From an uncultured Bordetella sp. (lineage in GTDB: Bacteria; Pseudomonadota; Gammaproteobacteria; Burkholderiales; SG8-39): DNA of 50,601 nt. The first letter of the stretch is position 1, and every line of letters starts with the position of its first letter. Position numbers and translations under genes: made by a program. This document shows positions 13,201-39,091 of this stretch, in pieces. A model generated the notes under the pieces. That model ran no database searches, had not been told where the DNA came from, and saw only the letters and a program-made list of their open reading frames with translations. The stretch spans positions 1-50,601 of the forward strand of contig CAYLPI010000004.1 of assembly GCA_964385505.1 (NCBI GenBank), given 5' to 3'.

Positions 13201-14232
13201 TTGATTCGCACTTCACGCCTTATAACCGCCCTGCGTCCGGGTCTGCTGGCCGCGACGCTCGCCATCACCGCCGCGCTTGCGGCACCGTCCCAGGCGCTGG
13301 CACAGGTCGCCTCGACCGGCTCTGGACAGGCATGGCCGACCAAGCCGGTGCGCGTGGTCGTCACGCTGTCGCCGGGCTCGACCTCGGACATTCTCGCCCG
13401 CGTGGTGGCCGAGCAGATGAGCAAAAGCCTCGGCCAGTCCTTTGTCGTCGAAAACCGGCCCGGCGCCGGCGGCAACATCGCCGGCGATTATGTCGCACGC
13501 CAGCCGGCGGACGGCTACACCATCATGCTCGCGTCCATCAGCTCCCACGGCATCAACCCGGCGCTGTACGCAAAAATGCCCTACGACGCGCTGCGCGACT
13601 TCGTGCCGGTCATCGCCCTCGCCTCCAGCCCCAACGTGCTGATCGCCTCCAACGAAACCCCGGTCGCTTCGGTGAGGGAGCTCGTCACCTGGCTGAAGGG
13701 CCAGCCTGCGGGCACGGTCAACTATGCCTCGGCCGGCAACGGCACATCGATGCATCTCGCCGGCGAACTGTTCAACACCCTCGCCGGGGTCAAGGCCACG
13801 CACATCCCGTACAAGGGTTCGCCCGAGGCGGTGACGGCGGTAATGAAAAACGAAGTCGCCATCATGTTCCCCAACGCCCCCAACGCGGTGTCGCTGGCCA
13901 GGAGCGGCAAGATCAAGCTGCTCGCCGTCACCTCGCCCAAGCGCCTGCCCTCCATGCCGGAAGTCCCCACCGTCATTGAGGCCGGCCTCGCCGGCTTTGA
14001 TGTCGTCGCCTGGTTCGGTTTTGTCGCGCCGGCCGGCACGCCACCCGACATCGTCGCCAGACTCAACGCCGAGGGGCAGAAGGCGCTCGCGCTGCCGGCA
14101 GTGCGCGAAGCGCTGACCAAGCAGGGCTTTGATGTCATGGGCGGCTCGGCCCCGGACTTCGGCCAGTTCATGCGCGGCGAAATCGACAAATGGACGCGCG
14201 TCGTCAACGGCGCAAACCTGCCCAAGCTCTGA
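13201..14232 (+). CDS. Bug/TctC substrate-binding protein
   Basis: TTG start after GGAG; WPTKPVRVVV, ENRPGAGG, HIPYKGS. Confidence 0.92.
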   Translation: MIRTSRLITALRPGLLAATLAITAALAAPSQALAQVASTGSGQAWPTKPVRVVVTLSPGSTSDILARVVAEQMSKSLGQSFVVENRPGAGGNIAGDYVARQPADGYTIMLASISSHGINPALYAKMPYDALRDFVPVIALASSPNVLIASNETPVASVRELVTWLKGQPAGTVNYASAGNGTSMHLAGELFNTLAGVKATHIPYKGSPEAVTAVMKNEVAIMFPNAPNAVSLARSGKIKLLAVTSPKRLPSMPEVPTVIEAGLAGFDVVAWFGFVAPAGTPPDIVARLNAEGQKALALPAVREALTKQGFDVMGGSAPDFGQFMRGEIDKWTRVVNGANLPKL

Positions 14233-15698: not shown

Positions 15699-16628
15699 AT
15701 GCCCGCGCCCTCTTTGAACCTGCCGCAAATTCCCGACGCCCTGGCCGCGCGCATGGCCGAGATCGGTCCGGTCTGGGGAACCAATGTCGGCGGCCACGTG
15801 CGCGAAACCATCGCGCTATACAGTGCCGTGCTGGCACAGACGCCGCGCGAGGGCATCACCACGACGCGCGACATCGCTTACGCAGCGCACGCGCGCCAGG
15901 TGCTCGATGTGTACGTACCCGATGGCGTCACGAAAGAAAACGGCGCGGCGCCGGTGGTGGTGTTTGCGCACGGCGGCGCCTTTGTCGAGGGCGACAAGGA
16001 ACGCACGCCCGAGGTCTATGGCAATGTGCTGCGCCGCCTGGCGCGCGGTGGCGTGGTCGGCGTCAACATGGAATACCGGCTCGCACCCGAGTTTAAATAC
16101 CCGGCCGCCAGCGATGACGTCGCCGGCGCCCTCGCCTGGACGCGCGCCAACATCGCCCGGTTTGGCGGTGACCCGGCGCGTATTTTCCTGATGGGACACT
16201 CGGCCGGCGCGGCGCACACCGGCTCATATGCCTATGACGCGCGGCGGCACGGCAAGGACGGCCCGCGCATCGCCGGCCACATCGTGGTCAGCGGCCGCGT
16301 GCGCGCAGAAATGCGCGCCGACAATCCCAACCGCAGCAAGGTCGCCGCGTATTACGGCGAGGACGCCGCCTTGCAGGAGGACTGCTCCGCGGTGAGCCAC
16401 ATCAACGCGGCGAGCGTGCCGACAATGATTGCGATGGCCGAGTTCGACAATCCGCTCATCGACATCCATTGCATCGAACTCGCACACCGGCTGGCACAGG
16501 CGCAAAACCGCGCGCCGCGCACGCTGTGGCTCGAAGGCCACAATCACACTTCTATCATCGCTGCCATGGACACCGCGGATGACAGACTGGGCGGCGAAAT
16601 ACTCGACTTCATCCGGCACGGGCGCTAG
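15699..16628 (+). CDS. HSL-family alpha/beta hydrolase (carboxylesterase/arylformamidase-like)
   Basis: HGGAF oxyanion motif, YRLAPE, GHSAG nucleophile, HNH. Confidence 0.88.
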   Translation: MPAPSLNLPQIPDALAARMAEIGPVWGTNVGGHVRETIALYSAVLAQTPREGITTTRDIAYAAHARQVLDVYVPDGVTKENGAAPVVVFAHGGAFVEGDKERTPEVYGNVLRRLARGGVVGVNMEYRLAPEFKYPAASDDVAGALAWTRANIARFGGDPARIFLMGHSAGAAHTGSYAYDARRHGKDGPRIAGHIVVSGRVRAEMRADNPNRSKVAAYYGEDAALQEDCSAVSHINAASVPTMIAMAEFDNPLIDIHCIELAHRLAQAQNRAPRTLWLEGHNHTSIIAAMDTADDRLGGEILDFIRHGR

Positions 16629-16636
16629 CGCGCCGC

Positions 16637-18790
16637 TCAGGGCCGGGCGGCGAGCAGGTCTTCGAGCGCAGGCAGCGTGTTCACCGGGGCAAGACACGTC
16701 ATACCGCGGCACAGGTACGCGCTGACACCGCTTGACGGTGCCGGTTTGTCCAGCAGCGGCGGCAGGCGCTGGGACTTTGACGGCACCGCAATCACCAGTG
16801 TCATCGGCTGGAAACCCTTACAGAGCGTGCTTCGGCCGGCAGGCCGAAGCTGCTCGCTAGGCGCCGGGAATTCTCGGCGAAACCCCTGGCTCGCCCCGTC
16901 CAGCGCGGCCCTCCAGCGGGTCATCTCTTCTTCATCACCGCGCAGCACCAGTACCGCGGGTGGTGTCAGGTATTCCTCCAGCGCCATGCACAACGTGGCG
17001 TAGCCGCCCGGGCTTTTGCGCATGGCCGGATAAAACAGCGCGATGCAGCGCTCGGCCGCGGTCAGAAATCGCGTTTCGCCACCGATATGTCCGAGACGTT
17101 GCAGCGCCAGCGCGGCGACGCCGTTGCCCGAGGGCGTGGCGTTGTCGTGGCCGGGCTTGGTGCGCTGGATCAGGCGCTCGTGGTCGTGGCTGGTGAAGCA
17201 AAAGCCGCCGCCCGCGCGGTCTTCGAATTGCTCCAGCAGCACTTCGGCCAGTTCCTCGGCGAAATCGAATTCATCGACGCGAAAGTCCGTCTGCATCAGC
17301 TCGAGCAGCGCCGCCAGCAGGAACGCGTAATCGTCCAGATAGGCATTGAGGTGGGCGCGGCCGTCCTTGTACGTGGCGAGCAGGCGCTCGCCTCCGGCCG
17401 CGTCGCTGCGCGCCTGCCACATGGTGGCACGAATGAAGGCGAGGGCCTTGCGCGCCGAAGCCAGCCAGTCGGGGCGACCGAACACGCGCGCCGCGCGCGC
17501 CATGCCGGCGATCATCAGCGCGTTCCAGGCGACGAGGATCTTTTCGTCGCGGCCCGGCCACACACGCTCGCCGCGCACGGTGAGCAGCTTGTCGCGACCG
17601 CTCGCCAGCAACGCCTCGCATCGCCCGACGCCGCAGCCGAGCTTTGTCGCAATTTCGGTCAACGGCACCGCGACAAGAAAGTGCCAGTGCCTGCCCTCGA
17701 AGTTGGGGCTGCGCTCGAGGCCGTAGTGTGGCGCCAGCACCGCATACTCATCCGCGGTGATCGCGGCGGCAACCTGTTCTTGCGTCCAGACATAAAACCG
17801 GCCTTCCTCGCCCTCGGAGTCGGCGTCGAAAGCCGAGTAATAACCGCCCTCGGCTGATTGCATTTCACGCATCGCCCAGTCGGCGGTTTGCTCAGTGATA
17901 GCGCGGTACAGGACATTGCCGGTCGCGGCAAAGGCATCGGCATAGCGCGAGAGCAGCGGGCCGTTGTCGTAGAGCATTTTTTCGAAATGTGGAATCGCCC
18001 ACTGCGCATCGGTGCTGTAGCGGGCGAAGCCGCCACCGAGCTGGTCAAAAATGCCGCCCAGCGCCATGTTCTCCAGGGTAAACAGCGCGGCGTGCAAGGC
18101 CTGGCTGTCGCCGTTCGAGGCATGACGGCGCAGCAGCAATTCGAGATCGGTCGGATGCGGAAACTTTGGCGCGCCACCAAAGCCGCCGAACTGCGGATCG
18201 AACGCGGCCTTGAGCGAGGCCACCGCCCCGTCCACGGGCTCGGCCGAAAACTCCGAGTGATGCACGGCGCCCGACGGTTGCATGCGCGCAAGGGCTTCGA
18301 GCAGCGAAGCGTTTTGTTCGCGTATTTCGGGCTGGCGCTCGCGATACATCGAAGCCACGCGTTCGCACAAATCGGCAAAGCCCGGCCGGTTGTAGCGCGC
18401 GGTCTTGGGAAAATACGTGCCACCGAAAAACGGCGTGCCCTCGGGCGTCAAAAACATCGTCAACGGCCAGCCGCCGTTTTGCTGCGTCAGCAGGTGGTGT
18501 GCGCTCTGATAAATCTGGTCGAGGTCGGGCCGCTCTTCGCGATCGACCTTGATGTTGACGAACAGGCGGTTCATCACCGCGGCCACTTCTGTGTCCTCAA
18601 AGGACTCGTGCGCCATCACATGGCACCAGTGGCAGGCCGAGTAGCCCACCGACAGCAGGATCGGCTTGCCCTCGTCGCGCGCCCGCGCCAGGGCCTCCTC
18701 TCCCCAGGCAAACCAATCGACCGGATTGCCCGCGTGCTGCTGCAGGTAGGGGCTGGTTTCCTTGGCGAGGCGGTTCATGCGCATGGCCAA
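16637..18790 (-). CDS. yyaL: YyaL/SSP411-family protein (DUF255 thioredoxin domain plus six-hairpin glycosidase-like domain)
   Basis: [62 protein letters not shown]. Confidence 0.93.
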
Positions 18791-19609
18791 TCAGCCGCCC
18801 GCGCGCATCTGAGCGCGGCGCACCCGGGCGCTGATGGCGTCGACGAACACCACCAGCACCAGCATGGCGATGATGACCGTACTCGCCTGCGCTTCATGCA
18901 GCAGCGACAACTCGTAGTAAAGCATCTGCCCCAGCCCGCCGGCGCCGACAAAACCGAGCACCGTGGCCATGCGTATGTTCATTTCCCAGCGGTAGAGGCT
19001 GTAGGCAATGAGTTGCGGCGTGATCAGTGGCAGCGTGCCGTAGATGAAGGTCAGACCGGCCGGCGCGCCGCTTTCGGCCAGCGCGCGCGCCGGTTCGGTC
19101 GGCGCGTTCTCCAGCGATTCGGCGAACAGCCGCCCGAGCACACCGGAGGTGTGCAAGGCCAGCGCCAGCGTGCCGGCGAAGGGCCCGAGGCCGGCGGCGA
19201 GCACCATCAGCGCCGCCCACACCAGCTCGGGCACCGAGCGCAGAAAGTTAAGGAAAAACCGCGTCAACGCCTTGGCCGCACCACCGAAACGCCCCGATGC
19301 CGGCAAGGCCAGCGCGAGGCCTGCCGCTGTGGCAAGCAGGGTGCCAACGGCGGAAATAGCCAGCGTCTCGAGCGCGCCCTTGCCGATTTTTTGCAGAAAA
19401 TCGGCAGACATGTCGGGCGGAAAAAACCGCCTCACAAACTCGGCCATGTAGCCGCGCGATTCGGCGGTAAAGAGGCGCCGCGGTTCGATGGCGAGATAGG
19501 CAAAGCTCGCCCAGATCACGACGGCCAGCGCAGCCAGACCGAGCCAGCAATAAATGCAAAAGCCCAGCGCGCGCCGGCGTTCTTCAAAGGTAACGGTGGC
19601 GTTATTCAT
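18791..19609 (-). CDS. PhnE/PtxC-family ABC permease
   Basis: RSVPELVWA, LGRLFAE, YRWEMNIRMATVLGFVGAGGLG; overlaps the upstream permease stop. Confidence 0.9.
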   Translation of the reverse strand: MNNATVTFEERRRALGFCIYCWLGLAALAVVIWASFAYLAIEPRRLFTAESRGYMAEFVRRFFPPDMSADFLQKIGKGALETLAISAVGTLLATAAGLALALPASGRFGGAAKALTRFFLNFLRSVPELVWAALMVLAAGLGPFAGTLALALHTSGVLGRLFAESLENAPTEPARALAESGAPAGLTFIYGTLPLITPQLIAYSLYRWEMNIRMATVLGFVGAGGLGQMLYYELSLLHEAQASTVIIAMLVLVVFVDAISARVRRAQMRAGG

Positions 19610-20439
19610 GCCAGCAGCTTGCGGATGGACGCGCTGATGGCATCGGCGAGCAGCACCAGCAGCAGGAACATGATGAGAATGGTCGAGACCTCGCCGCCAT
19701 TGAGCATTTTCATCGACTGGTCCATCAACTGGCCGAGACCACCGGCCCCGACAAAGCCCATGATGACCGAGGCGCGCACGGCACATTCCCAGCGATAGAC
19801 GGTGTAGGAGGCGAGCTCTTGTGAGGCGCCGGGCAACAGCCCGTAAAAGAACGCCATCAGGCGGCCGCTGCCCGATTCGAGCAGCGCGCGTGCCGGGCGG
19901 GTGTCTCCGGATTCGAGAATTTCAGAATAGACCTTGCCCAGCATGCCACCGTAAGTGACGGCGATGGCAAGCACGCCTGCGGCCGGCCCGAGGCCGAAGG
20001 CGCGCACCAGCAACAGTGCCCAGACAATCTCCGGTATGCCGCGCAACACCAGCAGCGTGACGCGCGCCAGCGCGCGCAACGCCTCGCCAAAGCCGCGCCC
20101 CGGCCCCGGCCCGATGCGCGATATCGACAGGCTGTGCGAGAGCACGAGCCCCAGCGGCGCGGCCAGCAGCATCGCCAGCGCGGTACCGGCCGTGGCCATG
20201 GCCAGCGTCTCGACGGTGGCCTTCAACACCAGTTGCAGGAACTCGCCCGTCAGATCAGGCGGGAAAAACTGCCCGACGAATCCGCCCATGACCTTGAGGT
20301 TGCGCGCATCGAACAACTCGGCCGGATTGAATTGTGCGATATGCAGCAGCGGCCACAAAACCAACAGCGCGGCCGCCACCCATAGCGCACGCCCTGCCGC
20401 GTCCGGATCGCGCAATGCCATAGTCGCCGGTCCGTTCAT
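19606..20439 (-). CDS. PhnE/PtxC-family ABC permease
   Basis: RGIPEIVWA, LGKVYSEILE, YRWECAVRASVIMGFVGAGGLG. Confidence 0.9.
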   Translation of the reverse strand: MNGPATMALRDPDAAGRALWVAAALLVLWPLLHIAQFNPAELFDARNLKVMGGFVGQFFPPDLTGEFLQLVLKATVETLAMATAGTALAMLLAAPLGLVLSHSLSISRIGPGPGRGFGEALRALARVTLLVLRGIPEIVWALLLVRAFGLGPAAGVLAIAVTYGGMLGKVYSEILESGDTRPARALLESGSGRLMAFFYGLLPGASQELASYTVYRWECAVRASVIMGFVGAGGLGQLMDQSMKMLNGGEVSTILIMFLLLVLLADAISASIRKLLA

Positions 20440-20446
20440 CGCCCCT

Positions 20447-21277
20447 CTAGATGATGCGCGGCGGCGCCACGACTCTGAGTCGGTCGGTCGCCGGTGCCAC
20501 GTCGAACGGCTGATTGTCCTGGGTCGGCAGGGTGCCGGTTTCGGACGCATACAGGTCGCGCAACACGCTATCGCTGACCTTGACCGCCGCCAGGTCGAAG
20601 GCGATCTCGCCGGCACGCAGGCCGATGACGCGCGGAAACCAGCGCAGCGCCACGTCCACCGCGTGCAGGCTCGCCACCAGCGTGACGCCGCGCGTCGACG
20701 CTTCGCTGTGCAACTGGCTGACAGTGAGATCGGCAAGCGCCGGGTCCATCGCCGATACCGGCTCGTCGGCCAGCAACAGGTCCGGTTGCTGGTAGAGCGC
20801 ACGCGCCACGCCGACGCGCTGCAACTGCCCGCCGGAGAGCCGGTCGCAGCGCTCGAACAGGCGGTCGGCGAGATCAAGACGCGCCAGTTGCTCGCGCGCA
20901 CCGGCGATGTCGGCCGGATAGACCAGCGACAGCGCCGATTTCCACCATGGCCACACCCCCAGACGCCCGGCCAGCACCGCGGTAATGGCGCGCTGACGCG
21001 GCGGGATGGGCGGCGACTGGTGCACGACGCCGATGCGCGCGCGCAGCTGCCGCAATTGTGCGCCGGAGAGTTGCCACGGATTGGCCTGCAACACCGACAC
21101 GCGGCCTTCGGTCGGCCGCAGCGATGTCGCAAGAATGCGCAACAGCGAGGTCTTGCCCGCACCCGAGGGGCCGATGATGGCGATGCGCTCGCCGCGCCCG
21201 GCGCTGAGCGTGACCGCGCGCAGCGCGCGCTGGCCGTTGGCGTGAGCGAGGCCCACTTGTGAGAGTTCGAAACTCAA
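20447..21277 (-). CDS. PhnC-like ABC ATP-binding protein
   Basis: [26 protein letters not shown]. Confidence 0.92.
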
Positions 21278-21327
21278 GAAGGGTGTCTTATGACATGGTC
21301 GCGCATAGAGCTTGTATCAAACTATTT

Positions 21328-21432
21328 TGTCATTCCGGGGCCTTTGCGACTGCGCTCAGGGCAGGCTCCAGCCGAGGAATCTGCTTTTTGCCACAATCGA
21401 GAAGCAGATTCCTCTGTGCGCTCGGAACGACA
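21328..21432. repeat. REP-like palindromic element (TGTCATTCCG...GGAATCT / AGATTCC...CGGAAtGACA family) with a nested insertion at 21341-21367
   Basis: Inverted arms shared with copies at 25090 and 38985. Confidence 0.8.
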
Positions 21433-21463
21433 AGTTTTGAGTTTGCCGTTAATCCGTTGTTTG

Positions 21464-22333
21464 TTACTTGATCAGGCCGGCCGACTTGGCGGCGTTCTCG
21501 ATACCGTCATAGTTGGAGGCCTTGGTCGGGATGAACCTGGAGGCACGCTGCAAATCCATGATGGCCTTGTGCGCCGGGTTGCCGGCGTCGAGCTTCAAAA
21601 AGGCGGCCGTGAGTTTTTTAACCACCACCGGGTCGAGGTCGCCACGCACCGTCCAGTTGTAATCATAATAGGGCGGCGTGGTAGCGAGGACCTTCACTTT
21701 CATCGCATTGGGGTTTTTCGTTTCAACCAGCTTGTCCCACACCGACGCATTGAGCACGCCGGCCTCGGCCTTGCCACCGGCGACAAAGGCAACGGTGGCG
21801 TCATGCGCGCCGGAAAAAGCGACGTTCTTCAGATCCTTGTCCGGATTAATGCCCGCCTTCAGCATGAAGTAGCGCGGCATCAGGTGGCCCGAGGTCGATG
21901 AGGGCGACCCGAAGGCGAAGGACTTGCCCTTGATATCGGCGAGCGTCTTGGCGGTGCTGTCGGCGGGCACGATAAAACGGCTGATGAATTTTTCGTCCTC
22001 GGCGCGCTGCACGATGGGTATGGCCGTGCCGTTGGTACGCAGTTTGGTTTGCACGAAGGTAAAGCCGCCAAGCCAGACGAGGTCGAGCTTGCGCGTGGCG
22101 AGCGACTCGACCACGGCGGCGTAGTCGGTTACCGGCGTGAACTCGACCTTCATCCCGGTTTCCTTTTCCAGGTACTCGCCCAGCGGTTTGAACTTGCGCT
22201 GCAACTCGGTCGGCGCTTCATCGGGAATGGCAGAAACCCTGAGTACGGCCTGCGCCAGAGCCGTATCAAAGAAGGCCAGCGAAAGCATGACGGCGGCGAG
22301 AATGGATGAGAACTTGCGTGGCAAAACACTCAT
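21464..22333 (-). CDS. PhnD-like periplasmic binding protein, putative selenate ABC transporter type
   Basis: Signal peptide; VSAIPDE, TDYAAVV, WLGGFT, STSGHLMPR, SGAHDAT, YYDYNW; lies next to sen genes. Confidence 0.85.
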   Translation of the reverse strand: MSVLPRKFSSILAAVMLSLAFFDTALAQAVLRVSAIPDEAPTELQRKFKPLGEYLEKETGMKVEFTPVTDYAAVVESLATRKLDLVWLGGFTFVQTKLRTNGTAIPIVQRAEDEKFISRFIVPADSTAKTLADIKGKSFAFGSPSSTSGHLMPRYFMLKAGINPDKDLKNVAFSGAHDATVAFVAGGKAEAGVLNASVWDKLVETKNPNAMKVKVLATTPPYYDYNWTVRGDLDPVVVKKLTAAFLKLDAGNPAHKAIMDLQRASRFIPTKASNYDGIENAAKSAGLIK

Positions 22334-22371
22334 GACGACTCCTGGACGAATTAAAAAGGTAATGGAAAACT

Positions 22372-22530
22372 TCAGGTCACCGGCACACCCGACCCGGGGT
22401 TAAAAGCCCTGATCTTGCGCGCACCGGCAAACCCGCCCGCGTTAAACAGCGTGAGTGCGCCGGGTGCGACACTGCAGCCACCGCCGTGGGCGGGCGGGGC
22501 AAGGCGGAACGCGGTACTCATCTGGTTCAT
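22372..22530 (-). pseudogene. selD: 52-aa ORF: internally deleted selenophosphate synthetase (selD/senC) remnant, N-terminus fused to C-terminus
   Basis: Manual translation MNQMSTAFRLAPPAHGGGCSVAPGALTLFNAGGFAGARKIRAFNPGSGVPVT*; RBS GGAG 8 nt upstream; resembles SelD N-terminal RLxxxxHGGGCGCKIAPG and a SelD-like C-terminal tail; located between senA and the ABC transporter. Confidence 0.7.
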
Positions 22531-22595
22531 GGCGATGACTCCGGAATTTGAGCGCGCAGTTTAACAGGCCGCTGCAGTCCTTCTTCAGGCCCGGC

Positions 22596-23843
22596 TCAAC
22601 ACGCCTGCTGCTGTACGCGTTGCAATTGCGCATCGATGGCCTTGAGTTGCGCCCCGCCACCGGCGTTTTTTACCGCCATGGCCTGCGCTTTTGCCAGCGA
22701 GGTTTTCGCAGGGCCCCACTGCAGCAGCGTGCATTGCGCGCTACCCAGATCGAGGTAGCCGCCCGCCAGCGTGAAGGCGCGAAATTCCGGCTGGCCCGTC
22801 GCGGTTGAGGCCTCCAGCGCCGCCGTGGATTTGCCGAATGCCCGTAGCGCTTCGTCGCTGCGGCCCTGCTGCCGGTAAATCAGTACCAGCCCGCGATAAA
22901 TTTCCGCAACGAGATAGACACGGTCCGCACCGAATTTCGACTGGATATCGGCCTCGCGCAGTTTCAGCACCACGCGCAGCGCTTCTACCCCGGTGCGCTC
23001 GGCCTCGTTCAGGCGCTGCATGGACCAGTACAGTGTGCCGGTGCGGTAAACAACAAAGGCCACCTGCGGACTGTCGGCGCCAAAGGTCTTGGCCGCGACA
23101 AGCGCCCCGGCATACAACGCCATTGCATCGTCCGGACGTTTGTTGCGGTAGGCTTCAAGACCCTGTTGCAGCTTTGCCGGCCATTGATTCTGGTCTGCCG
23201 GCGCCTTGGGGACCGGGCCGGCTTCCGGAGCCGGTGTTGCGACCGCTGCCGCCGCTGCGACTGGCGGCGCCGGATACAGTATCCATTCGACACTCAGCGC
23301 TACCAGTCCCGGTTTGGCGCTGCGTATCCTCAGCTTTGCCAGATTGCCTTCGGTGGTACGAACGGCGATGACCGTGCCGTCCTTGATTTCGGCACCGGCG
23401 CCCGATGCCGGCAGCCGCACCAGATCGTATCGGAGTGTGGCAAGAAAGGCCGCGTCCATCGCCGGGAAATCGCGGCCCCCTGCGTCTGGGATGCGCGCCA
23501 TCAAAGCGCTGTTCCTCAAATCCAGCGAGCGGTCGGTCTTGGTGGCGAAATGCCACCACAGGTCGGCAGCCTTGAGGGCGGCGGTATCGCCGGTCTCCAG
23601 ATCCAGCGTGAAACTGGGCTTCACCGTCGCCGACATGACCGACTCGGCGACGACCCTGGGCTTCACCGCAGGCAGCGTCGTCGGCACGGGAATGCGCTGC
23701 AACAGCGCCTTGAGCTCCGGGGCATAGCGCACCGCCGCGACCACTGCGGCGGCGACCAGGGCGACCAGCACCCACATCCAGTCGGATCGACTGCTGCGAT
23801 TAACTTCGCCAGGGGACCCGCCCCGATCAAAATTGCCATTCAT
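22596..23843 (-). CDS. Membrane-anchored protein with beta-rich domain and C-terminal TPR repeats
   Basis: TM segment WMWVLVALVAAAVVAAV; GTVIAVRTTEGNLAKLRI domain; Pro/Ala linker; TPR-like helices; ATGA overlap with the senA stop. Confidence 0.7.
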   Translation of the reverse strand: MNGNFDRGGSPGEVNRSSRSDWMWVLVALVAAAVVAAVRYAPELKALLQRIPVPTTLPAVKPRVVAESVMSATVKPSFTLDLETGDTAALKAADLWWHFATKTDRSLDLRNSALMARIPDAGGRDFPAMDAAFLATLRYDLVRLPASGAGAEIKDGTVIAVRTTEGNLAKLRIRSAKPGLVALSVEWILYPAPPVAAAAAVATPAPEAGPVPKAPADQNQWPAKLQQGLEAYRNKRPDDAMALYAGALVAAKTFGADSPQVAFVVYRTGTLYWSMQRLNEAERTGVEALRVVLKLREADIQSKFGADRVYLVAEIYRGLVLIYRQQGRSDEALRAFGKSTAALEASTATGQPEFRAFTLAGGYLDLGSAQCTLLQWGPAKTSLAKAQAMAVKNAGGGAQLKAIDAQLQRVQQQAC

Positions 23844-25036
23844 GACACGGCGCAGGTGCGAAAGCCGCAAAACATGTCGGCGCGATCGGGTTTGTAAAAA
23901 TTGCGCAAGGCCGGGCGCTGCAGTCGCGCCGGCGTGACGAAACTGCCGCCGCGCAGCACGCGATGATGCTCGGCAAACCACGGCGCCGAGTAGTCCTTGT
24001 AAGGGTCAGCGGCAAAGCCGGCAAAGGGTGAGAAGCGGCTGGCGGTCCATTCCCAAGCGCAGCCTGTGTCGAACTGTTCTGGCGCGCTGCGCGCTGCATG
24101 TTCGAATTCGGCCTCGGTCGGCAGGCGCCGGCCGGCCCAGCGGCAATACGCCTCGGCCTCGTGGGCGCTGACGTGCATGACAGGCTCATCGTTGGCAAGA
24201 GGCAACCAGGCGTCGAAGCGACGAACCAGCCAGGCGCCTTTCTCGCGGCGCCAGTAGCGCGGATGGTCGAGCGCGAGCGACTCGCGCATCGCCCAGCCCT
24301 CGTCGCTCCACAAGGCGCGCCGCGCATAACCGCCGGTGTCGACGAACTCGCGGTACTGGCCGTTGCTGAGCACGCCGCGGGCGATGGCGAAAGGCTCGAG
24401 CGTCACTTCGTGCCGCCATTTCTCGTTGTCGAACACGAAGCCCGTTCCGGGGGCTGATCCGAGCATGACCGCGCCCCCTGACAGGGCGATGTCGCCTTCG
24501 GGCAGCGCCGACAAAGCCGGCGTATCGGGCAGCGCAAAACCCAGCGTCTGCCAGCTGTAAGTGAAGGCCTCGTTGTGCATGTCGTGGTGAAAGCCGACCA
24601 GTTGGGCGAAATAGGCGCGCTCATCGTCCGCCTCGTCCTGCAACAGCGCGAGGCTTTTCGCCAGCACGGCGGCGGCATAGGCGCGCATCGCGGCGAAATC
24701 GGGCAGGTCCAGCGTCCAGCGCGTGTCATGCGCGACGTTCGAAGAGTCGTACCAGCGGTCGGCATCAGCTAGCAGGGAGGGCGTGTTGAAATCGCCGCCG
24801 CGATGCAGCCAGAATTCCTCGAACCATGCGACGTGACCGATTTCCCAAAGCGGCGGGTTGACGATCGCGAGCAGTGGCACCTCCATGCTGCGCGTGGCGA
24901 ACCGCGCGAACAACTGTCGTGTGCGCGCGTGCGCTTCGGTCAGCCGCCCGCGCAGTACGGTCGCCGCCGGATGCGGGCGAAACTGCGCGAAATCGGGCCA
25001 GCCGGCGCGATGCGCTCGCTCTGCTATATTGCTCAT
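23840..25036 (-). CDS. senA: Selenoneine synthase SenA (EgtB-like DinB + FGE-sulfatase domains)
   Basis: NPPLWEIGHVAWFEE, YDSSNVAHDTRW, HHDMHNEAF metal triad, FVFDNEKWRH, RRLPTEAEFE, WEWT, DPYKDYSAPWF, RGGS, GFRTC; divergent from senB. Confidence 0.9.
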   Translation of the reverse strand: MSNIAERAHRAGWPDFAQFRPHPAATVLRGRLTEAHARTRQLFARFATRSMEVPLLAIVNPPLWEIGHVAWFEEFWLHRGGDFNTPSLLADADRWYDSSNVAHDTRWTLDLPDFAAMRAYAAAVLAKSLALLQDEADDERAYFAQLVGFHHDMHNEAFTYSWQTLGFALPDTPALSALPEGDIALSGGAVMLGSAPGTGFVFDNEKWRHEVTLEPFAIARGVLSNGQYREFVDTGGYARRALWSDEGWAMRESLALDHPRYWRREKGAWLVRRFDAWLPLANDEPVMHVSAHEAEAYCRWAGRRLPTEAEFEHAARSAPEQFDTGCAWEWTASRFSPFAGFAADPYKDYSAPWFAEHHRVLRGGSFVTPARLQRPALRNFYKPDRADMFCGFRTCAVS

Positions 25037-25089
25037 CGGACACGACTACCAAGATTAATGCTGCGTTTTAACATGACCATCCCGAACCT

Positions 25090-25169
25090 TGTCATTCCGG
25101 GCGCAAAGACCGAGGAATCTGCTTTTGCGTCAAACAAAAAGCAGATTCCTCACTGCGTTCGGAATGACA
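25090..25169. repeat. REP-like palindromic element in the senA/senB divergent intergenic region
   Basis: tgtcattccg...gaggaatctgctttt / aaaagcagattcctc...cggaatgaca. Confidence 0.82.
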
Positions 25170-25199
25170 CGTTGTTTTGAATCAAGTACCACTCCGACC

Positions 25200-26147
25200 A
25201 TGCGCATCGTCATTGTAACGCCGGCACGACCGGGCTCGCGCCACGGCAACCGCAATACCGCGCTGCGCTGGGCGGCGCACTTGCGCGCGCTGGGTCATCG
25301 AGTACTCGTCACGCTCGAATGGAAAGACCAGGCGTGCGACCTGCTGATCGCACTGCACGCGCGGCGCAGCCACGCCTCGATCAAGGCCTTCAAGGCTGCA
25401 CACCCGAACAAACCGCTGGTACTGGTACTGACCGGGACCGACCTTTACCGCGACATTCGCAGCGACAAGGATGCGAAGCAGTCTCTCAAACTCGCCGACC
25501 GCATGGTGGTGTTGCAGCCCGGTGGGCTGGATGAGCTCAAGGCCGGCGCACGCGCAAAGACCCGTGTGATTTTCCAGTCAGTGCGCGCGATGAGGCGACA
25601 GGCACCGCCCGCCAGCTATACCCTGGTCACGGTGATCGGCCATTTGCGCGAGGAAAAAGACCCGTTTCGCGCCGCGCTGGCACTGGCGCGCCTGCCGGCC
25701 GATGACAATGTCCGCGTTGTCCACCTGGGCCAGGCCATGTCAGCCGAATACGCGCGCGAAGCGCGGGCGCTGATGAAATACGAACCGCGCTACCGCTGGC
25801 TGGGCGAGCTTGACCACGCCGGTGCGATGCGCTGGCTCGCGCGCAGCCACGCCATGGTGATTTCCAGCCTGATGGAGGGCGGCGCCCACGTCGTGTCCGA
25901 GGCCATCGCCATCGGCGTGCCGGTCATTGCATCGGATGTGCCGGGCAATATCGGCCTGCTGGGCCAGGGCTATCCGGGCTGTTACCCGGTCGGCGATGAC
26001 AAGGCGCTTGCCGCGCTGCTCGCGCGCGCCGCGGCCGATCCGGCATGGCTGGCGCGGCTTGCCGCCAAAACCACCGCACGCCAGGGCATTGTCGATCCGG
26101 CGCGCGAGCGCGCCGGGCTGGCGCGGCTGGTGGCTGATTTGCATTGA
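25200..26147 (+). CDS. senB: Selenosugar synthase SenB (GT-B glycosyltransferase)
   Basis: IVTPA...GNRNTALRW, IALHARRS, LTGTDLYRD, GHLREEKDP, SSLMEGGAHVVSEA. Confidence 0.92.
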   Translation: MRIVIVTPARPGSRHGNRNTALRWAAHLRALGHRVLVTLEWKDQACDLLIALHARRSHASIKAFKAAHPNKPLVLVLTGTDLYRDIRSDKDAKQSLKLADRMVVLQPGGLDELKAGARAKTRVIFQSVRAMRRQAPPASYTLVTVIGHLREEKDPFRAALALARLPADDNVRVVHLGQAMSAEYAREARALMKYEPRYRWLGELDHAGAMRWLARSHAMVISSLMEGGAHVVSEAIAIGVPVIASDVPGNIGLLGQGYPGCYPVGDDKALAALLARAAADPAWLARLAAKTTARQGIVDPARERAGLARLVADLH

Positions 26148-26196
26148 AGTTTGCAGCGCGCGTCTACCATCTTGCACCGTTACGGAGCCTGAGCCG

Positions 26197-26895
26197 ATGA
26201 AACCACTGCCAGAGCACGAAGACCAGACCCGCATGCGCCGCCGCGTCATTGCCGGCCTGCTCGCCGGCGGACTATCCGCAAACCCGCTGATACGTCAGGC
26301 ACTGGCGCAGCAAACCATCACCCAGGGCATGCAACGGGTGCAGGGCGAGGTACGCGTCAATGGCGTGCTGGCCGAGGCCGGCACCGCAGTACGCCCCGGC
26401 GATAGCGTCACCACCGGGCGCCGCGCCCTCGCCATGTTCGTCGTCGGCCAGGACGCGTTTTTGCTGCGCAATAACAGCCGCGCCGATCTGGCCGGCGCCG
26501 ATTTGTTCATCGACGTGCTGCGCCTGGTCAGCGGCCGCTTGCTCAGTGTGTTCGGCAAGGGCGGCGATCGACGCATCGTCACGCCGGCGGCGACCATAGG
26601 CATACGCGGCACCGGCGGCTACGCCGAGGCCGAGAACACACGCACCTATTTTTGCCTGTGCTACGGCACGGCCGACATCGCCACCACCGACGGCGCCGCA
26701 CGCGACAGCTATACCACCGCGCACCACGAGTCGCCGCGCTACATTTACGGCGACGGGCGCGGCAACGCCATCGTTCCGGCGAGCGTGTCCAATCACACCG
26801 ACTACGAGCTGATCATGCTCGAAGCACTGGTCGGGCGGCGTCCGCCCGACTCGGTGATGAACGCGCCGATGATGAGCAATCCCTACGCCTATTAA
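26197..26895 (+). CDS. FecR-domain protein with Tat-like signal peptide
   Basis: RRRVIAGLLAGG...ALA; GEVRVNG, PGDSVTTG, TPAATIGIRGT. Confidence 0.78.
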   Translation: MKPLPEHEDQTRMRRRVIAGLLAGGLSANPLIRQALAQQTITQGMQRVQGEVRVNGVLAEAGTAVRPGDSVTTGRRALAMFVVGQDAFLLRNNSRADLAGADLFIDVLRLVSGRLLSVFGKGGDRRIVTPAATIGIRGTGGYAEAENTRTYFCLCYGTADIATTDGAARDSYTTAHHESPRYIYGDGRGNAIVPASVSNHTDYELIMLEALVGRRPPDSVMNAPMMSNPYAY

Positions 26896-27041
26896 GTATT
26901 AGCGCGCTCGCCCACGCCGGGGGCATAGGCGGTAAGATTGCAGGTGCGTGCATCGTGGGCAAACGCGGCGACACGCCAGCACAATAAAACCATATCCGGA
27001 TCCGCCCCCTTGCCGGTCCGCGCATCGAAGGAGGAGGGTCA

Positions 27042-27911
27042 ATGAAAGCCCCTGCATTCGCCTACGCCAGGCCGGCGTCGCTTGGCGAGGTGTTCACGCT
27101 GCTGGCGCAGCACGGTGACGGCGCACGGCTGCTCGCCGGCGGCCAGAGCCTGCTCGCCACGCTCAACCTGCGCCTGTCGGCACCGGACATTTTGATCGAC
27201 ATCACCGGCCTGCCCGGCATGGCCGGCATCACGATTGAAAAGGACACGCTGCGCATAGGCGCGCTGGCGACGCACCGCGAACTCGAGCACTCCCACGCCA
27301 TCAGCCATCACCTGCCGCTGCTGGCGCAGGCGGTGCCGCATGTCGCGCATATCGCCATCCGCAACGTCGGCACTTTCGGCGGCAGTATCGCCATGGCCGA
27401 CCCGGCAGCCGAGTATCCGGCGGTGTGCGTCGCGCTCGATGCGCAATTCGTGATTGCCGGCGCCAAGGGAGAGCGCCGCGTCGCCGCGCGAGAGTTCTTC
27501 AAGGGCATGTACGAGACCGCGCTGCGGCCGGGCGAAGTACTGGTCGCAGGCGAGTTCCGCATCCGGCCCGAGGGCTATCGCTCGGCCTTCATCGAACTGG
27601 CGCGCCGTCACGGCGACTACGCCATTGTCGGCCTCGCCGCCCAGGCCAATTGCAGCGACGGCAAGTACAGCGATGTCAGCCTGGCCTTTCTCGGTGCCGG
27701 CGGCGAACCGGTGCTGGCGCGCGCCACCGCAGCAGCGCTCGAGGGCAAGGCGTTCGGTGCCGACACCATTGCGCTGGCCCAGGCTGCACTGGCAAAAGAG
27801 CTCGATCCGCCGGCCGACTTGTATTCCTCGTCCGCCACCAAGCTGCACCTCGCGCGCGTCATCACCGGCCGCGCGCTGGCGACACTTGCAACGCTGGCCG
27901 CAGCGACATGA
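27042..27911 (+). CDS. Mo-hydroxylase FAD-binding subunit (CoxM/CutM-like)
   Basis: MKAPAFAY, AGGQSL, IRNVGTFGGS, ADPAAE, RRHGDYA. Confidence 0.95.
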   Translation: MKAPAFAYARPASLGEVFTLLAQHGDGARLLAGGQSLLATLNLRLSAPDILIDITGLPGMAGITIEKDTLRIGALATHRELEHSHAISHHLPLLAQAVPHVAHIAIRNVGTFGGSIAMADPAAEYPAVCVALDAQFVIAGAKGERRVAAREFFKGMYETALRPGEVLVAGEFRIRPEGYRSAFIELARRHGDYAIVGLAAQANCSDGKYSDVSLAFLGAGGEPVLARATAAALEGKAFGADTIALAQAALAKELDPPADLYSSSATKLHLARVITGRALATLATLAAAT

Positions 27912-27922
27912 ACGGAGCGATC

Positions 27923-28423
27923 ATGAACCACGACATCGAAACCACAATCACCGTCAACGGCAAACCGGTGACGCGGCGTATTGCGCCGCGCACCCACCTT
28001 ATTGATTTTTTGCGTGACGAGCTGGGCCTGACCGGTTCGCACATTGGCTGCGAGCACGGCGTCTGCGGTGCCTGCACCATCCGACTCGATGACAAGATCG
28101 TACGCGGCTGCCTGACGCTGGCGGTGCAGGCCAACGGCCGGCGTGTGGATACCATTGAAGGCCTGTCCGATTCAGGCGAGCTCGCCGCAATACAGAAGGC
28201 CTTTCACGAACGCAACGCGCTGCAATGCGGCTTTTGCACGCCGGGCATGCTGATGGCGGCGCAGGACCTGCTGCTGCACAAGCCCGATGCGACGCGCGAA
28301 GAAATCCGCGAACACATTTCCGGCAACTACTGCCGCTGCACCGGCTACCAGGCCATCGTCGATGCCATCGAGATCGTCTTGACGCAAAATCGAGCGGGAC
28401 GTAAATCGCAGGTGACGGCATGA
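27923..28423 (+). CDS. Mo-hydroxylase 2Fe-2S subunit (CoxS/CutS-like)
   Basis: GCEHGVCGACT, QCGFCTPG, NYCRCTGY; alternative start at 27908. Confidence 0.95.
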   Translation: MNHDIETTITVNGKPVTRRIAPRTHLIDFLRDELGLTGSHIGCEHGVCGACTIRLDDKIVRGCLTLAVQANGRRVDTIEGLSDSGELAAIQKAFHERNALQCGFCTPGMLMAAQDLLLHKPDATREEIREHISGNYCRCTGYQAIVDAIEIVLTQNRAGRKSQVTA

Positions 28424-30810
28424 ACGCCCGCGCCGAACTGCCGCTGCACGCCCCCGGCACCACCACCGACCGCGGCTACATCGGCAAGAGCGAGCCGCGC
28501 GCCAATGCCAAGCGCCTGCTGCAAGGCCGCGGCACGTATGTGGACGACATGCGTTTTCCCCGTCTCGCTCATGCGGTGTTTTTCCGCAGCCCGCATGCGC
28601 ACGCCAAGCTGACGCGCCTCGACCTGTCCAAGGCCGCGACGCAACCCGGCGTCATCGCCGCGTTCGACGGCCGCGCGGTGGCCGAACACTGCACTCCCTG
28701 GGTGGCGGTGTTGGGCCACCTCAAGGGCATCAAGTCGCCGCCGCAGCACGCCATCGCCATCGGGCGCGCCTGCTGGCAGGGCGAGGCCGTTGCGGTGATC
28801 GTGGCCGAAACCCGCGTGCAGGCCGAGGATGCCCTCGCGCTGATCGAAGCCGACTGGGAGGAACTGCCTGTCGTCACCGACATGGAGGCCGCGCTTGCCG
28901 GCAAGGTGCTTATCCACCCCGAGCTTGGCGACAATATCTGCTTTTCGCGCGAACTCGTCACCGCAGGCTTCAACGAAGCCTGGAGCAAGGCTGATGTCGT
29001 CGTCGAGCAGACTTACGAATTTGGCCGCCACACCGGCGTCACCATGGAAGGCCGCTCGATACTGGCTGACTACAACGTGGCGGAACATTCGCTGACGGTC
29101 TATCACTCGACCCAGGCGCCGCACATGATGCAGGATATTTTTTCGCGCCACCTCAATATTCCCGAGTCGAACGTGCGCGTGATCTGCAAGGACGTCGGCG
29201 GCTCGTTCGGCATCAAGGTGCATGTGTACCCCGATGAAATGGCCACCGCCGCGCTGTCGGTAATGCTGCGCCGCCCGGTGAAGTTCGTCGCCGACCGGCT
29301 GGAGAGCTTTCTGACTGACATTCATGCGCGCGAGCACAAGGCCACGGTGCGCCTCGCCTGCACCAAAGAGGGCGAGATCCTCGCCTTCGACCTTGAAGAC
29401 CTCACCGCCATCGGCCCCTACTCGGTCTATCCGCGCACCAGCGGCATCGAGGGCAACCAGGTGGTCAACCTCACCGGCGGTCCCTACCGCCACAAGCAAT
29501 ACCGCGCCAAACTCAACGTGGTGTTCACCAACAAGAACGTCACCTGCCAGTACCGCGCCGTGGGCCACCCCATCGCCGTGGCGCTGACCGAGGCCATTGT
29601 TGACCTGGCAGCGCAAAAAATCGGCATGGACCCGGCCGAGTTCAGGCGCCGCAACATCATTCCCGATGACGCCTATCCCTATACCGCGCCATCGGGCATC
29701 AAGTTCGAAAAGCTGTCGCACCAGCAGACGCTGGAAAAACTGCTCACACTGATGGACTACGACACGCTGCGCGCGGAGCAAGTCGATCTGCGCAGGCAAG
29801 GCATTCATCGCGGCATCGGCCTCGCAGCCATGATTGAAGTGACCAATCCTTCGCCGGCGTTTTACGGTGTCGGCGGTGCGCGTATTTCGGCGCAGGACGG
29901 CGCAACGCTGCGCCTCGACCCGGCCGGGATGGTCTATGTGACCTGCAGCGTGACCGAACAAGGCCAGGGCACCGAAGGCATATTCGGGCAAATCGCCGCG
30001 AGCGTGGTCGGCGTCAGCATGGACAAGGTGCGCGTCGCCACCGGCGACACCGGCACCATGCCCTACGGCGGCGGCACGTGGGCCTCGCGCGGCGCCGGCA
30101 TCGGCGGTGAAGCGGTGTTGCAGGCGGGCAAGGCGCTGCGCTCCAACATCCTTGACGTTGCAGCCGCCATCCTGAATGAAGACAAGGCCAAGCTCGACAT
30201 CGTCAACAACGAAGTCACCGACAAGCTCAGCGGTGCGAGCAAGCTGACGCTGGCCGAATTGGGCCGCGTCGCCTACTTCAGGCCCGATACGCTGCCAATG
30301 AAGTTCCAGTCCGAACTCACGGTCACGCGCCACTATACGCCGCGCGAATACGGCTTTGTCTTCACCAACGGCATCCAGGCTTCGCTGGTGGAAGTCGATA
30401 CCGAGACCGGTTTCGTGAAGCTGCTCAAGCACTGGTGCGTCGAGGACTGCGGCACCGTCATCAACCCGATGCTGGTGGATGAACAAATCCGCGGCGGCGT
30501 GGTGCAAGGCATAGGCGCGGCGCTGTTCGAGCACTGCCTCTACGACGAGCACGGCCAATTGCTCAACGGCAACATGGCCGACTACCTCGTGCCGATGTCA
30601 GGCGAAATGCCCGACATCATCGTCGGTCACGTCGAAACGCCGACCAAGACATCCGAGCTCGGCGCCAAGGGCGCCGGCGAAGCCGGCACCGCCGGCGCAC
30701 CCGGCGCAGTGATGAACGCCATCAACGACGCACTGGCACCGTTCAAGGCCTACGTCAGCAACCAGCCGGCGACACCGGAGCGGATTTTGCGGGCACTGGG
30801 AAAGGTCTGA
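28420..30810 (+). CDS. Mo-hydroxylase large subunit (paralog 3)
   Basis: GGSFGIK, active-site loop QYRAVGHP, GAKGAGEAG. Confidence 0.93.
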   Translation: MNARAELPLHAPGTTTDRGYIGKSEPRANAKRLLQGRGTYVDDMRFPRLAHAVFFRSPHAHAKLTRLDLSKAATQPGVIAAFDGRAVAEHCTPWVAVLGHLKGIKSPPQHAIAIGRACWQGEAVAVIVAETRVQAEDALALIEADWEELPVVTDMEAALAGKVLIHPELGDNICFSRELVTAGFNEAWSKADVVVEQTYEFGRHTGVTMEGRSILADYNVAEHSLTVYHSTQAPHMMQDIFSRHLNIPESNVRVICKDVGGSFGIKVHVYPDEMATAALSVMLRRPVKFVADRLESFLTDIHAREHKATVRLACTKEGEILAFDLEDLTAIGPYSVYPRTSGIEGNQVVNLTGGPYRHKQYRAKLNVVFTNKNVTCQYRAVGHPIAVALTEAIVDLAAQKIGMDPAEFRRRNIIPDDAYPYTAPSGIKFEKLSHQQTLEKLLTLMDYDTLRAEQVDLRRQGIHRGIGLAAMIEVTNPSPAFYGVGGARISAQDGATLRLDPAGMVYVTCSVTEQGQGTEGIFGQIAASVVGVSMDKVRVATGDTGTMPYGGGTWASRGAGIGGEAVLQAGKALRSNILDVAAAILNEDKAKLDIVNNEVTDKLSGASKLTLAELGRVAYFRPDTLPMKFQSELTVTRHYTPREYGFVFTNGIQASLVEVDTETGFVKLLKHWCVEDCGTVINPMLVDEQIRGGVVQGIGAALFEHCLYDEHGQLLNGNMADYLVPMSGEMPDIIVGHVETPTKTSELGAKGAGEAGTAGAPGAVMNAINDALAPFKAYVSNQPATPERILRALGKV

Positions 30811-38926: not shown

Positions 38927-38984
38927 GGAATGGTCACCGGGAAAATAGGTTGTAAGGGCCGAAGGTGCGCGTCAGCATCGCTGG

Positions 38985-39051
38985 TGTCATTCCGAGCGCA
39001 GCGAGGGATCTGTTGTTGAAGAGCAGATTCCTCGCTGCGCTCGGAATGACA
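38985..39051. repeat. REP-like palindromic element
   Basis: tgtcattccgagcgcagcgagggatct / agattcctcgctgcgctcggaatgaca. Confidence 0.88.
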
Positions 39052-39091
39052 AGCTGTGGCAGGTTCATGTTGAAACGGGTATTCAGCTGCG

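Follow-up and report, generated by a model that had tools for sequence, protein, structure and literature searches.

The window analysed here is a 50,601-nt stretch of DNA that forms the first 50.6 kb of contig C4 (G+C approximately 65%) in the draft genome of an uncultured Bordetella sp. (GCA_964385505.1, contig CAYLPI010000004.1; G000 in the comparisons below). The draft consists of 308 contigs totalling 4.15 Mb and is 93% complete with 3% contamination. Positions 16637–26147 of the window carry a cluster of sen genes for the biosynthesis of the selenium antioxidant selenoneine, in which senA and senB are intact and senC is reduced to a short scar. The original prediction, made from the letters alone, had listed full-length, divergent senA and senB and, co-oriented with senA, genes for a tetratricopeptide repeat (TPR) protein, a 'miniSelD', a binding protein, an ATPase, two permeases and YyaL. 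Open reading frame (ORF) and family searches, in which curated NCBIfam cut-offs were used for the family calls with Pfam alongside, confirmed this gene list, the order of the genes and the coordinates of each.

The senA gene (23840–25036, minus strand) encodes a selenoneine synthase, a non-haem-iron selenoxide synthase, that scored 493.1 bits on NF041186 (cut-off 420). On the EgtB model it reached 272.7 bits, below the cut-off of 360, and the true EgtB of the genome, on contig C119, scored in the opposite sense with 560.8 bits on the EgtB model and 378.5 bits on the SenA model. Across a spacer of 163 nt, senB (25200–26147, plus strand; 403.2 bits on TIGR04348, cut-off 300) encodes the selenosugar synthase, a Se-glycosyltransferase. 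The senB ORF extends over 25089–26147, and the ATG at 25200, where the family model starts, is the likely start codon. Both proteins are orthologous to those of the senC-senB-senA cluster of Variovorax paradoxus and could be aligned end to end with the solved enzymes: SenA with structures 8ryz and 8k5i (E approximately 3e-88, residues 11–396) and SenB with 8jjn and 8fbx (E approximately 1e-65, residues 3–314). In alignment columns that were at least 95% conserved among 80 SenA and 67 SenB homologues, SenA matches the consensus at 71 of 72 positions, the exception being F for W at residue 311, and SenB at 53 of 53. Judged by the features of a sen cluster, a SenA distinct from EgtB and an adjacent SenB are present, and a SenC within the cluster is absent.

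In the closest public sen loci, senA is followed by a full-length SenC, which is a SelD homologue. The window instead holds a 52-codon ORF (22372–22530, minus strand), the 'miniSelD' of the original prediction, which was identified by tblastn, blastn and alignment to intact senC as the remnant of that gene after an in-frame internal deletion. The start codon, ribosome-binding site and stop codon of senC are retained together with approximately 26 N-terminal and 26 C-terminal codons; 297 of the 349 codons are gone, through an internal deletion of approximately 891 nt that kept the frame. By tblastn, the ORF is 58–62% identical to the SenC N-terminus in loci L006 and L015, and by blastn its ends match the senC of L015 at 75.6% over 82 nt (5' end) and 90.5% over 42 nt (3' end). 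Against the 1050-nt senC of the congener G002, nucleotides 1–79 of the scar align to nucleotides 1–85, and nucleotides ~100–159 to nucleotides 991–1050. A loss of 6 nt in the 5' part takes out the Cys/Lys part of the active-site loop, and the motif GGGCGCK is thereby destroyed (GGGC-S). At the protein level, the relatives begin with MNEM and the window ORF reads MNQMSTAFRLAPPAHGGGC--SVAPGAL; its end, GFAGARKIRAFNPGSGVPVT followed by the stop, matches the SenC C-terminus, GFADARKIGCFVEGAGLSVS followed by the stop. The 52-residue product gave no NCBIfam match at E <= 10, and it has neither the full AIR-synthase-like fold nor the N-terminal Cys/Sec-x-x-Lys motif of a SelD. Because so many of the codons are gone and no family is matched, the ORF, judged from its sequence, cannot be a selenophosphate synthetase, which bears out the earlier statement that no working senC is present locally.

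Contigs from four other metagenome runs were compared with the window. The same three base variants were present inside the scar in all four runs, so that each of them has a contig that bridges it. The longest support came from run X2, with a 3806-nt contig at depth 18 that spans 21360–25165 with 0 gaps; in the estuary run X12, a 580-nt contig spans 22370–22931. The scar stretch is real DNA and not an assembly artefact. In run X11, one contig follows the window from the transporter side as far as 22439, within the deletion junction, and then continues with 255 unlike letters. Its source may be a relative or another strain whose senC is different and perhaps intact.

The remainder of the genome was searched for the supply of selenophosphate and hercynine. 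A single SelD match over the cut-off was found, at 13373–14293 of contig C3 (298 bits in the contig search, cut-off 125); a second, weak match proved to be ThiL. In the C3 protein, a pyridine-nucleotide-disulfide oxidoreductase domain is fused to the N-terminal side of SelD. The fusion protein scored 518.9 bits on TIGR03169 (cut-off 310) and 295.1 bits on the SelD model TIGR00476 (cut-off 125), and with both domains over their cut-offs it belongs to the oxidoreductase-SelD fusions. It has the motif CGGCGAK, and lies outside the 'fusion_not_SelD' family (TIGR04369, 462.9 bits, below the cut-off of 700). The identity of 83–84% to the orthologues in the congeners G002 and G003 fits the divergence of the other genes, and contig C3 is therefore assigned to the same organism as the window. 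The suggestion that the host borrows selenophosphate from a distant selD is supported by this one intact gene. Its neighbours (locus L107, C3, 3170–16321) include genes for an ArsS-type radical SAM (seleno)protein (TIGR04167, 458 bits), a glycosyltransferase fusion of the 'arsenosugar biosynthesis' type (TIGR04283+TIGR04282), a flavoprotein disulfide reductase and a membrane protein, and the locus may represent a second SelD-dependent small-molecule pathway.

The genome search that the original prediction had proposed for selD, selU and egtD recovered all three, with selU on contig C15; selA was not found in the genome and selB did not reach its cut-off. The gene egtD (382 bits) lies side by side with egtB (561 bits) on C119. 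The window itself contains no egtD, as had been noted, and the only two EgtD-family matches of the genome are on C119 and C18. The second of these, an EgtD-like methyltransferase at C18:17931–18824 (L004), narrowly missed the cut-off of 290.9 with 278.8 bits, and no EgtB/SenA-type gene was found on contig C18. The supply of both selenophosphate and hercynine is thus encoded in the genome.

The frequency of this arrangement was examined in 41 related genomes, the source genome included. The respective cut-offs were exceeded by SenA in 22 of them, by SenB in 23 and by SelD in 32. Among the 22 genomes with both SenA and SenB, SelD was located on another contig in 12, which in draft assemblies is no proof of a large genomic distance, and on the same contig within approximately 3 kb in eight; no SelD was found in the remaining two, which are 74% and 85% complete. 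The SelD matches in G023 (contig C86), G030 (C28) and G038 (C12) each contain one in-frame TGA, consistent with a selenocysteine-containing SelD. A set of 80 public sen loci was also compared, of which 40 had at least 5 kb of DNA on either side of senA. Of these well-flanked loci, 35 had senB, and seven of the 35 had no SelD in reach. In one public locus (L007), the binding-protein gene directly follows senA with a spacer of 52 nt and no visible scar. The available text of Kayrouz et al. 2022 (10.1101/2022.04.13.486033) reports 827 three-gene clusters among 2,353 SenB sequences, a putative selenate transporter near many sen clusters, and hercynine that usually comes from an unlinked egtD. Based on the split-cluster counts and this original sen-cluster paper, the lack of egtD, the presence of a transporter and the lack of a local selD are each ordinary for sen clusters. 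The source genome resembles the V. paradoxus cluster in that the egtD for its hercynine is unlinked to the cluster, an arrangement that the accessible part of the same paper expects for most (10.1101/2022.04.13.486033); it differs in the senC scar, the unlinked fused SelD, the TPR gene after senA and the yyaL gene that closes the operon.

Within the genus, the source genome was compared with G001, G002 and G003. The region is syntenic with G001 and G002 at 75–87% nucleotide identity. The cluster of G002 (locus L105) shares the flanks and the order of ORF26, senB, senA, the binding-protein gene, phnC, phnE, phnE and yyaL, and this genome also has the fused SelD; it differs from the window in that an intact senC of 349 codons separates senA from the binding-protein gene and no TPR gene is present. 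In G001 the order is senA-senC-yyaL, and both the transporter and the fused SelD are missing; G003 has only the fused SelD and no sen genes, and the source genome has the fused SelD together with the senC scar. Such a distribution of SenC and the fusion is what differential loss of redundant paralogues would be expected to leave.

Four genes of a putative selenate ATP-binding cassette (ABC) importer follow the scar, all on the minus strand. The PhnD-like binding protein (21464–22333; PF12974) scored 367.2 bits on TIGR04553 (cut-off 250). The phnC-like ATPase (20447–21277; PF00005) reached 212.3 bits on TIGR02315, below the cut-off of 266.1, and the first phnE-like permease (19606–20439; PF00528) reached 202.6 bits on TIGR01097, below the cut-off of 216.7, which the second (18791–19609) exceeded with 240.5 bits. 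The ATG of the second permease overlaps the stop codon of the first as ATGA. With its score over the cut-off and one phnC-like and two phnE-like genes downstream, the binding protein is a member of TIGR04553, a family of the NCBIfam type 'hypoth_equivalog' whose selenate name is a comparative-genomics prediction. Selenium import through this system, another option that had been raised, is plausible from the 'putative selenate' family, but it already belongs to the published picture. Since the same transporter is found beside an intact senC in G002, G008, G011 and L036, it is no substitute for SenC. Amino acid identity to G002 is 93% for the binding protein, 90% for the ATPase, 90% for permease 1 and 92% for permease 2. 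These values (90–93%, compared with 72–76% for SenA and SenB) raised the possibility that the transporter block had been acquired horizontally, which was rejected, as the flanks are equally similar (CoxL 95%, ALDH 93%) and the synonymous divergence (dS) is alike across the block. By these identities the outliers of the block are senA and senB, not the transporter.

Taken together, it is quite probable that the locus is a split sen cluster, made by the loss of a redundant senC, with the distant fused SelD supplying selenophosphate. The extended form standard for the genus would be ORF26-senB divergent from senA-senC-binding protein-phnC-phnE-phnE-yyaL. Two changes would then have occurred in the source genome, where senC was apparently cut to a dead 52-codon scar and a TPR gene inserted behind senA. 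The senC gene was probably lost since it was redundant with the fused SelD. In the proposed pathway, the ABC system would import an inorganic selenium oxyanion and the C3 oxidoreductase-SelD fusion, the only SelD left, would make selenophosphate in trans, presumably serving SelU too. SenB would then convert selenophosphate and a UDP-sugar into a selenosugar, which SenA would couple to hercynine from the egtD-egtB pair on C119. The gene identities, the scar, the intact SelD, egtD and selU elsewhere in the genome and the comparative pattern were observed directly, whereas the supply of SenB by the fused SelD, the cargo of the transporter and the production of selenoneine are points that we infer from the sequences. 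The original prediction had itself held that an intact selD elsewhere, together with ordinary selenoneine production, would make the locus a simple split cluster, and on the selD part of that criterion it is one. The intact SelD elsewhere and the split clusters in 12 of 22 relatives leave the proposed 'undescribed variant of Se-metabolite biosynthesis' unsupported.

Several points weigh against the split-cluster interpretation, including the draft state of the relatives noted above. The fused SelD has a locus of its own and may be dedicated to another pathway, and a further selD is possible in the unassembled part of the 93%-complete, 308-contig draft. The genes senA and senB are the most diverged in the syntenic block, with 72–76% amino acid identity compared with 86–96% for CoxM, CoxL, ALDH and the transporter. 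The ratio of non-synonymous to synonymous substitution rates (dN/dS) was determined against the congeners for a gene set that leaves out PhnE1 and CoxS. Against G001 and G002 it was 0.24–0.25 for senA and 0.21 for senB, higher than for the transporter genes (0.055–0.12, with the binding protein at 0.055) and CoxL (0.056), and somewhat above the values between G001 and G002 for the same two genes (0.15–0.19). Mild relaxed selection on senA and senB is therefore possible.

The divergence of senA and senB and their slightly raised dN/dS also bear on the alternative that the locus is decaying, with the loss of senC as the first inactivation step and senA and senB still open but unused, so that no selenoneine would be made. 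The destroyed senC fits such a course, and sen genes do decay in the family: in G010 (C75:18054–19990), senA is present in two pieces (18986–19597 and 19619–19990) beside an intact senB and may be a broken senA. Decay is nevertheless considered unlikely. The senA and senB ORFs of the window are intact and over the curated cut-offs, their conserved residues are kept, and their dN/dS is far below 1, and pseudogenisation of either gene is not indicated. The transporter genes downstream of the scar are strongly constrained, an alternative SelD is present, and split clusters are the majority among the relatives. Strain polymorphism, in which genomes with an intact senC coexist with the scarred form or the unassembled 7% contains an intact senC, would leave the canonical three-gene pathway in most cells. 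The X11 contig that departs within the deletion junction and the 93% completeness are in keeping with it; however, the scar form was bridged in all four runs, including the deep 3806-nt contig, the assembly yielded no further SelD-type match, and the loose end in X11 may belong to another species. Polymorphism is accordingly rated very unlikely. The least probable of the explanations, and a highly improbable one, is re-routed chemistry, in which SenB would take a different donor, for example thiophosphate, or a ready selenosugar or selenoneine would be imported by the ABC system, to give a different product or salvage. A local senC is indeed absent and the function of the binding protein is a prediction (TIGR04553 being a 'hypothetical equivalog'), but an intact SelD exists, the same transporter accompanies intact senC genes in the four loci named above, and thioglucose is described in the available text as a very poor SenA substrate (10.1101/2022.04.13.486033). 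Nothing supports the re-routing to a sulfur donor that the original prediction had offered.

A further reading concerns the fusion itself. In G028, which belongs to the same order and a different family, locus L109 (C21:24000–40000) consists of phnE-phnE-phnC-binding protein (minus strand), egtD (plus), senA (minus) and senB (plus), with an oxidoreductase-SelD fusion directly after senB that is 69% identical to the C3 fusion over 755 residues. This cluster shares with the source genome the type of SelD fusion, the transporter family, senA and senB; it differs in that the fused SelD and egtD are inside the cluster, whereas the source genome has both on other contigs. In L008, a fusion 90% identical to the C3 copy adjoins senA. 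The occurrence of this type of fusion inside the sen clusters of G028 and L008 favours the proposed supply of SenB by the fused SelD in the split cluster, and hints that the fusion could be a SenC equivalent. That it has taken over the role of SenC in this lineage, as a second, reductase-coupled class of selenophosphate supplier whose flavoprotein domain perhaps reduces the imported selenium oxyanion, with YyaL and the TPR protein as accessory factors, is doubtful. If it were so, YyaL (a thioredoxin domain with a sugar-binding-like barrel) and the TPR protein might help, for example, to release selenoneine reductively from the hercynyl-selenosugar selenoxide.

Fusions of SelD with NADH-dehydrogenase-like domains were reportedly described by Zhang and co-workers in 2008 and tied to selenocysteine use. 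The C3 protein resembles such fusions in its N-terminal extra domain and its Cys-form SelD, and it differs from the selenocysteine-linked ones in its genomic setting, where the visible selenophosphate users are SelU and SenB. The accessible part of Mariotti et al. 2015 (PMC4561486) gives NADH-dehydrogenase-like fusions as the commonest SelD fusions, predicted to stay active, and likewise ties SelD fusions to selenocysteine use. An ovoselenol preprint mentions neither selD nor senC. The chemistry, the enzymes and the link to the transporter are all known already. Modestly new are the senC scar caught mid-loss, the hint that oxidoreductase-SelD fusions may be SenC equivalents, and the lineage-specific TPR gene. 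The locus carries little weight for pathway discovery, and its value lies in the evolutionary snapshot: a single genus holds a full cluster, a transporter-less cluster, a genome without sen genes and a scarred cluster, which illustrates how split sen clusters may arise where a second SelD is present. Genome mining that demands selD beside senA and senB would miss many producers, and as a candidate donor of selenophosphate to SenB the common oxidoreductase-SelD fusion can be tested.

The TPR gene (22596–23843, minus strand; PF13424) starts with an ATG that overlaps the stop codon of senA as ATGA. Its product of 415 residues is predicted to be membrane-anchored, with one N-terminal helix, an unmodelled domain of approximately 170 residues and then the TPR repeats. 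The AlphaFold model, built from 3 sequences, had a mean predicted local distance difference test score (pLDDT) of 58, with the helix (19–49) and the TPR region (221–411) at 70–89 and residues 50–216 below 50; the ESM Atlas gave no usable match. Specific to this lineage, the gene has been inserted between senA and senC. It was recovered from none of the 80 public sen loci, nor from G001, G002 or G003 with the window sequence as query, and a search of 5.8 billion proteins returned only the protein itself and one other at 59% identity. Among the related genomes, the only relative was in G011, at 34% identity and not within a sen cluster.

The last gene of the co-oriented run, yyaL (16637–18784, minus strand; PF03190, 249.7 bits, E 1.6e-74), starts 6 nt past the stop codon of the second permease gene. 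Based on this tight adjacency, it is likely to be co-transcribed with the locus. The next gene downstream, for an alpha/beta hydrolase, is convergent. YyaL combines a thioredoxin-like DUF255 (Thioredox_DsbH) domain, which contains the motif CHWC, with a long C-terminal domain; this combination places it in the YyaL/DUF255 family, and it matches PDB 7tkv, a 'Thioredox_DsbH domain-containing protein' (E 4e-125, residues 3–580). Orthologues in the same place in G001 and G002 are 75% identical in amino acid sequence. PF03190 was present in 27 of the 41 related genomes, some of them without senB. The gene adjoins sen genes only in the source genus; the two were on different contigs in each of the 16 other genomes that carry senA together with yyaL. 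A role of yyaL as a sen component was rejected, as its wider co-occurrence with senA gives no support, and searching the literature for a connection of YyaL, DUF255 or SPATA20 with selenium turned up nothing of relevance.

Scans for regulatory signals were uninformative for the operon limits, with one promoter-like site compared with 1.8 expected and 17 terminator-like sites compared with 11.1 +/- 4.0 expected. An Rfam search of 16000–27000 in E-value mode gave two chance-level small RNA matches (E 0.35 and 0.66) and no riboswitch in the spacers. Two spacers contain a nested hairpin of approximately 80 nt that resembles repetitive extragenic palindromic (REP) elements, with outer arms GTCATTCCGG/CCGGAATGAC and inner arms GAGGAATCTGCTT/AAGCAGATTCCTC. 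One copy (21311–21445) lies between the binding-protein gene and phnC and another (25090–25170) in the divergent senA/senB spacer; a third copy in the window is at 38984–39057. The first is a direct repeat (D2) of 25123–25173 at 80% identity and folds at -59.4 kcal/mol (z -4.8); the senA/senB copy, folded as 25085–25195, gave -48.4 kcal/mol (z -7.6). A cluster-specific regulatory RNA was considered for these two hairpins and rejected, since the family has 76 matches genome-wide, both strands counted, as expected of a REP-like repeat. The repeat also accounts for the apparent contig joints 21383->25134 and 21389->25137, which are false joints in short-read contigs. An extra C behind position 25134, inside the element of the senA/senB spacer, was seen in contigs of three of the four runs.

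On the other side of senB, ORF26 (26197–26895, plus strand) encodes 232 residues with a signal-like N-terminus and belongs to no Pfam or NCBIfam family. It was not present in any of the other 79 public sen loci, and it adjoins senB in G001 and G002 too, with 67–68% amino acid identity and a dN/dS of approximately 0.4. Directly beyond it lies a CoxM/CoxS/CoxL-like molybdenum hydroxylase operon (27042–30810, plus strand), named from the translations only, which has 87% nucleotide identity to the congeners.

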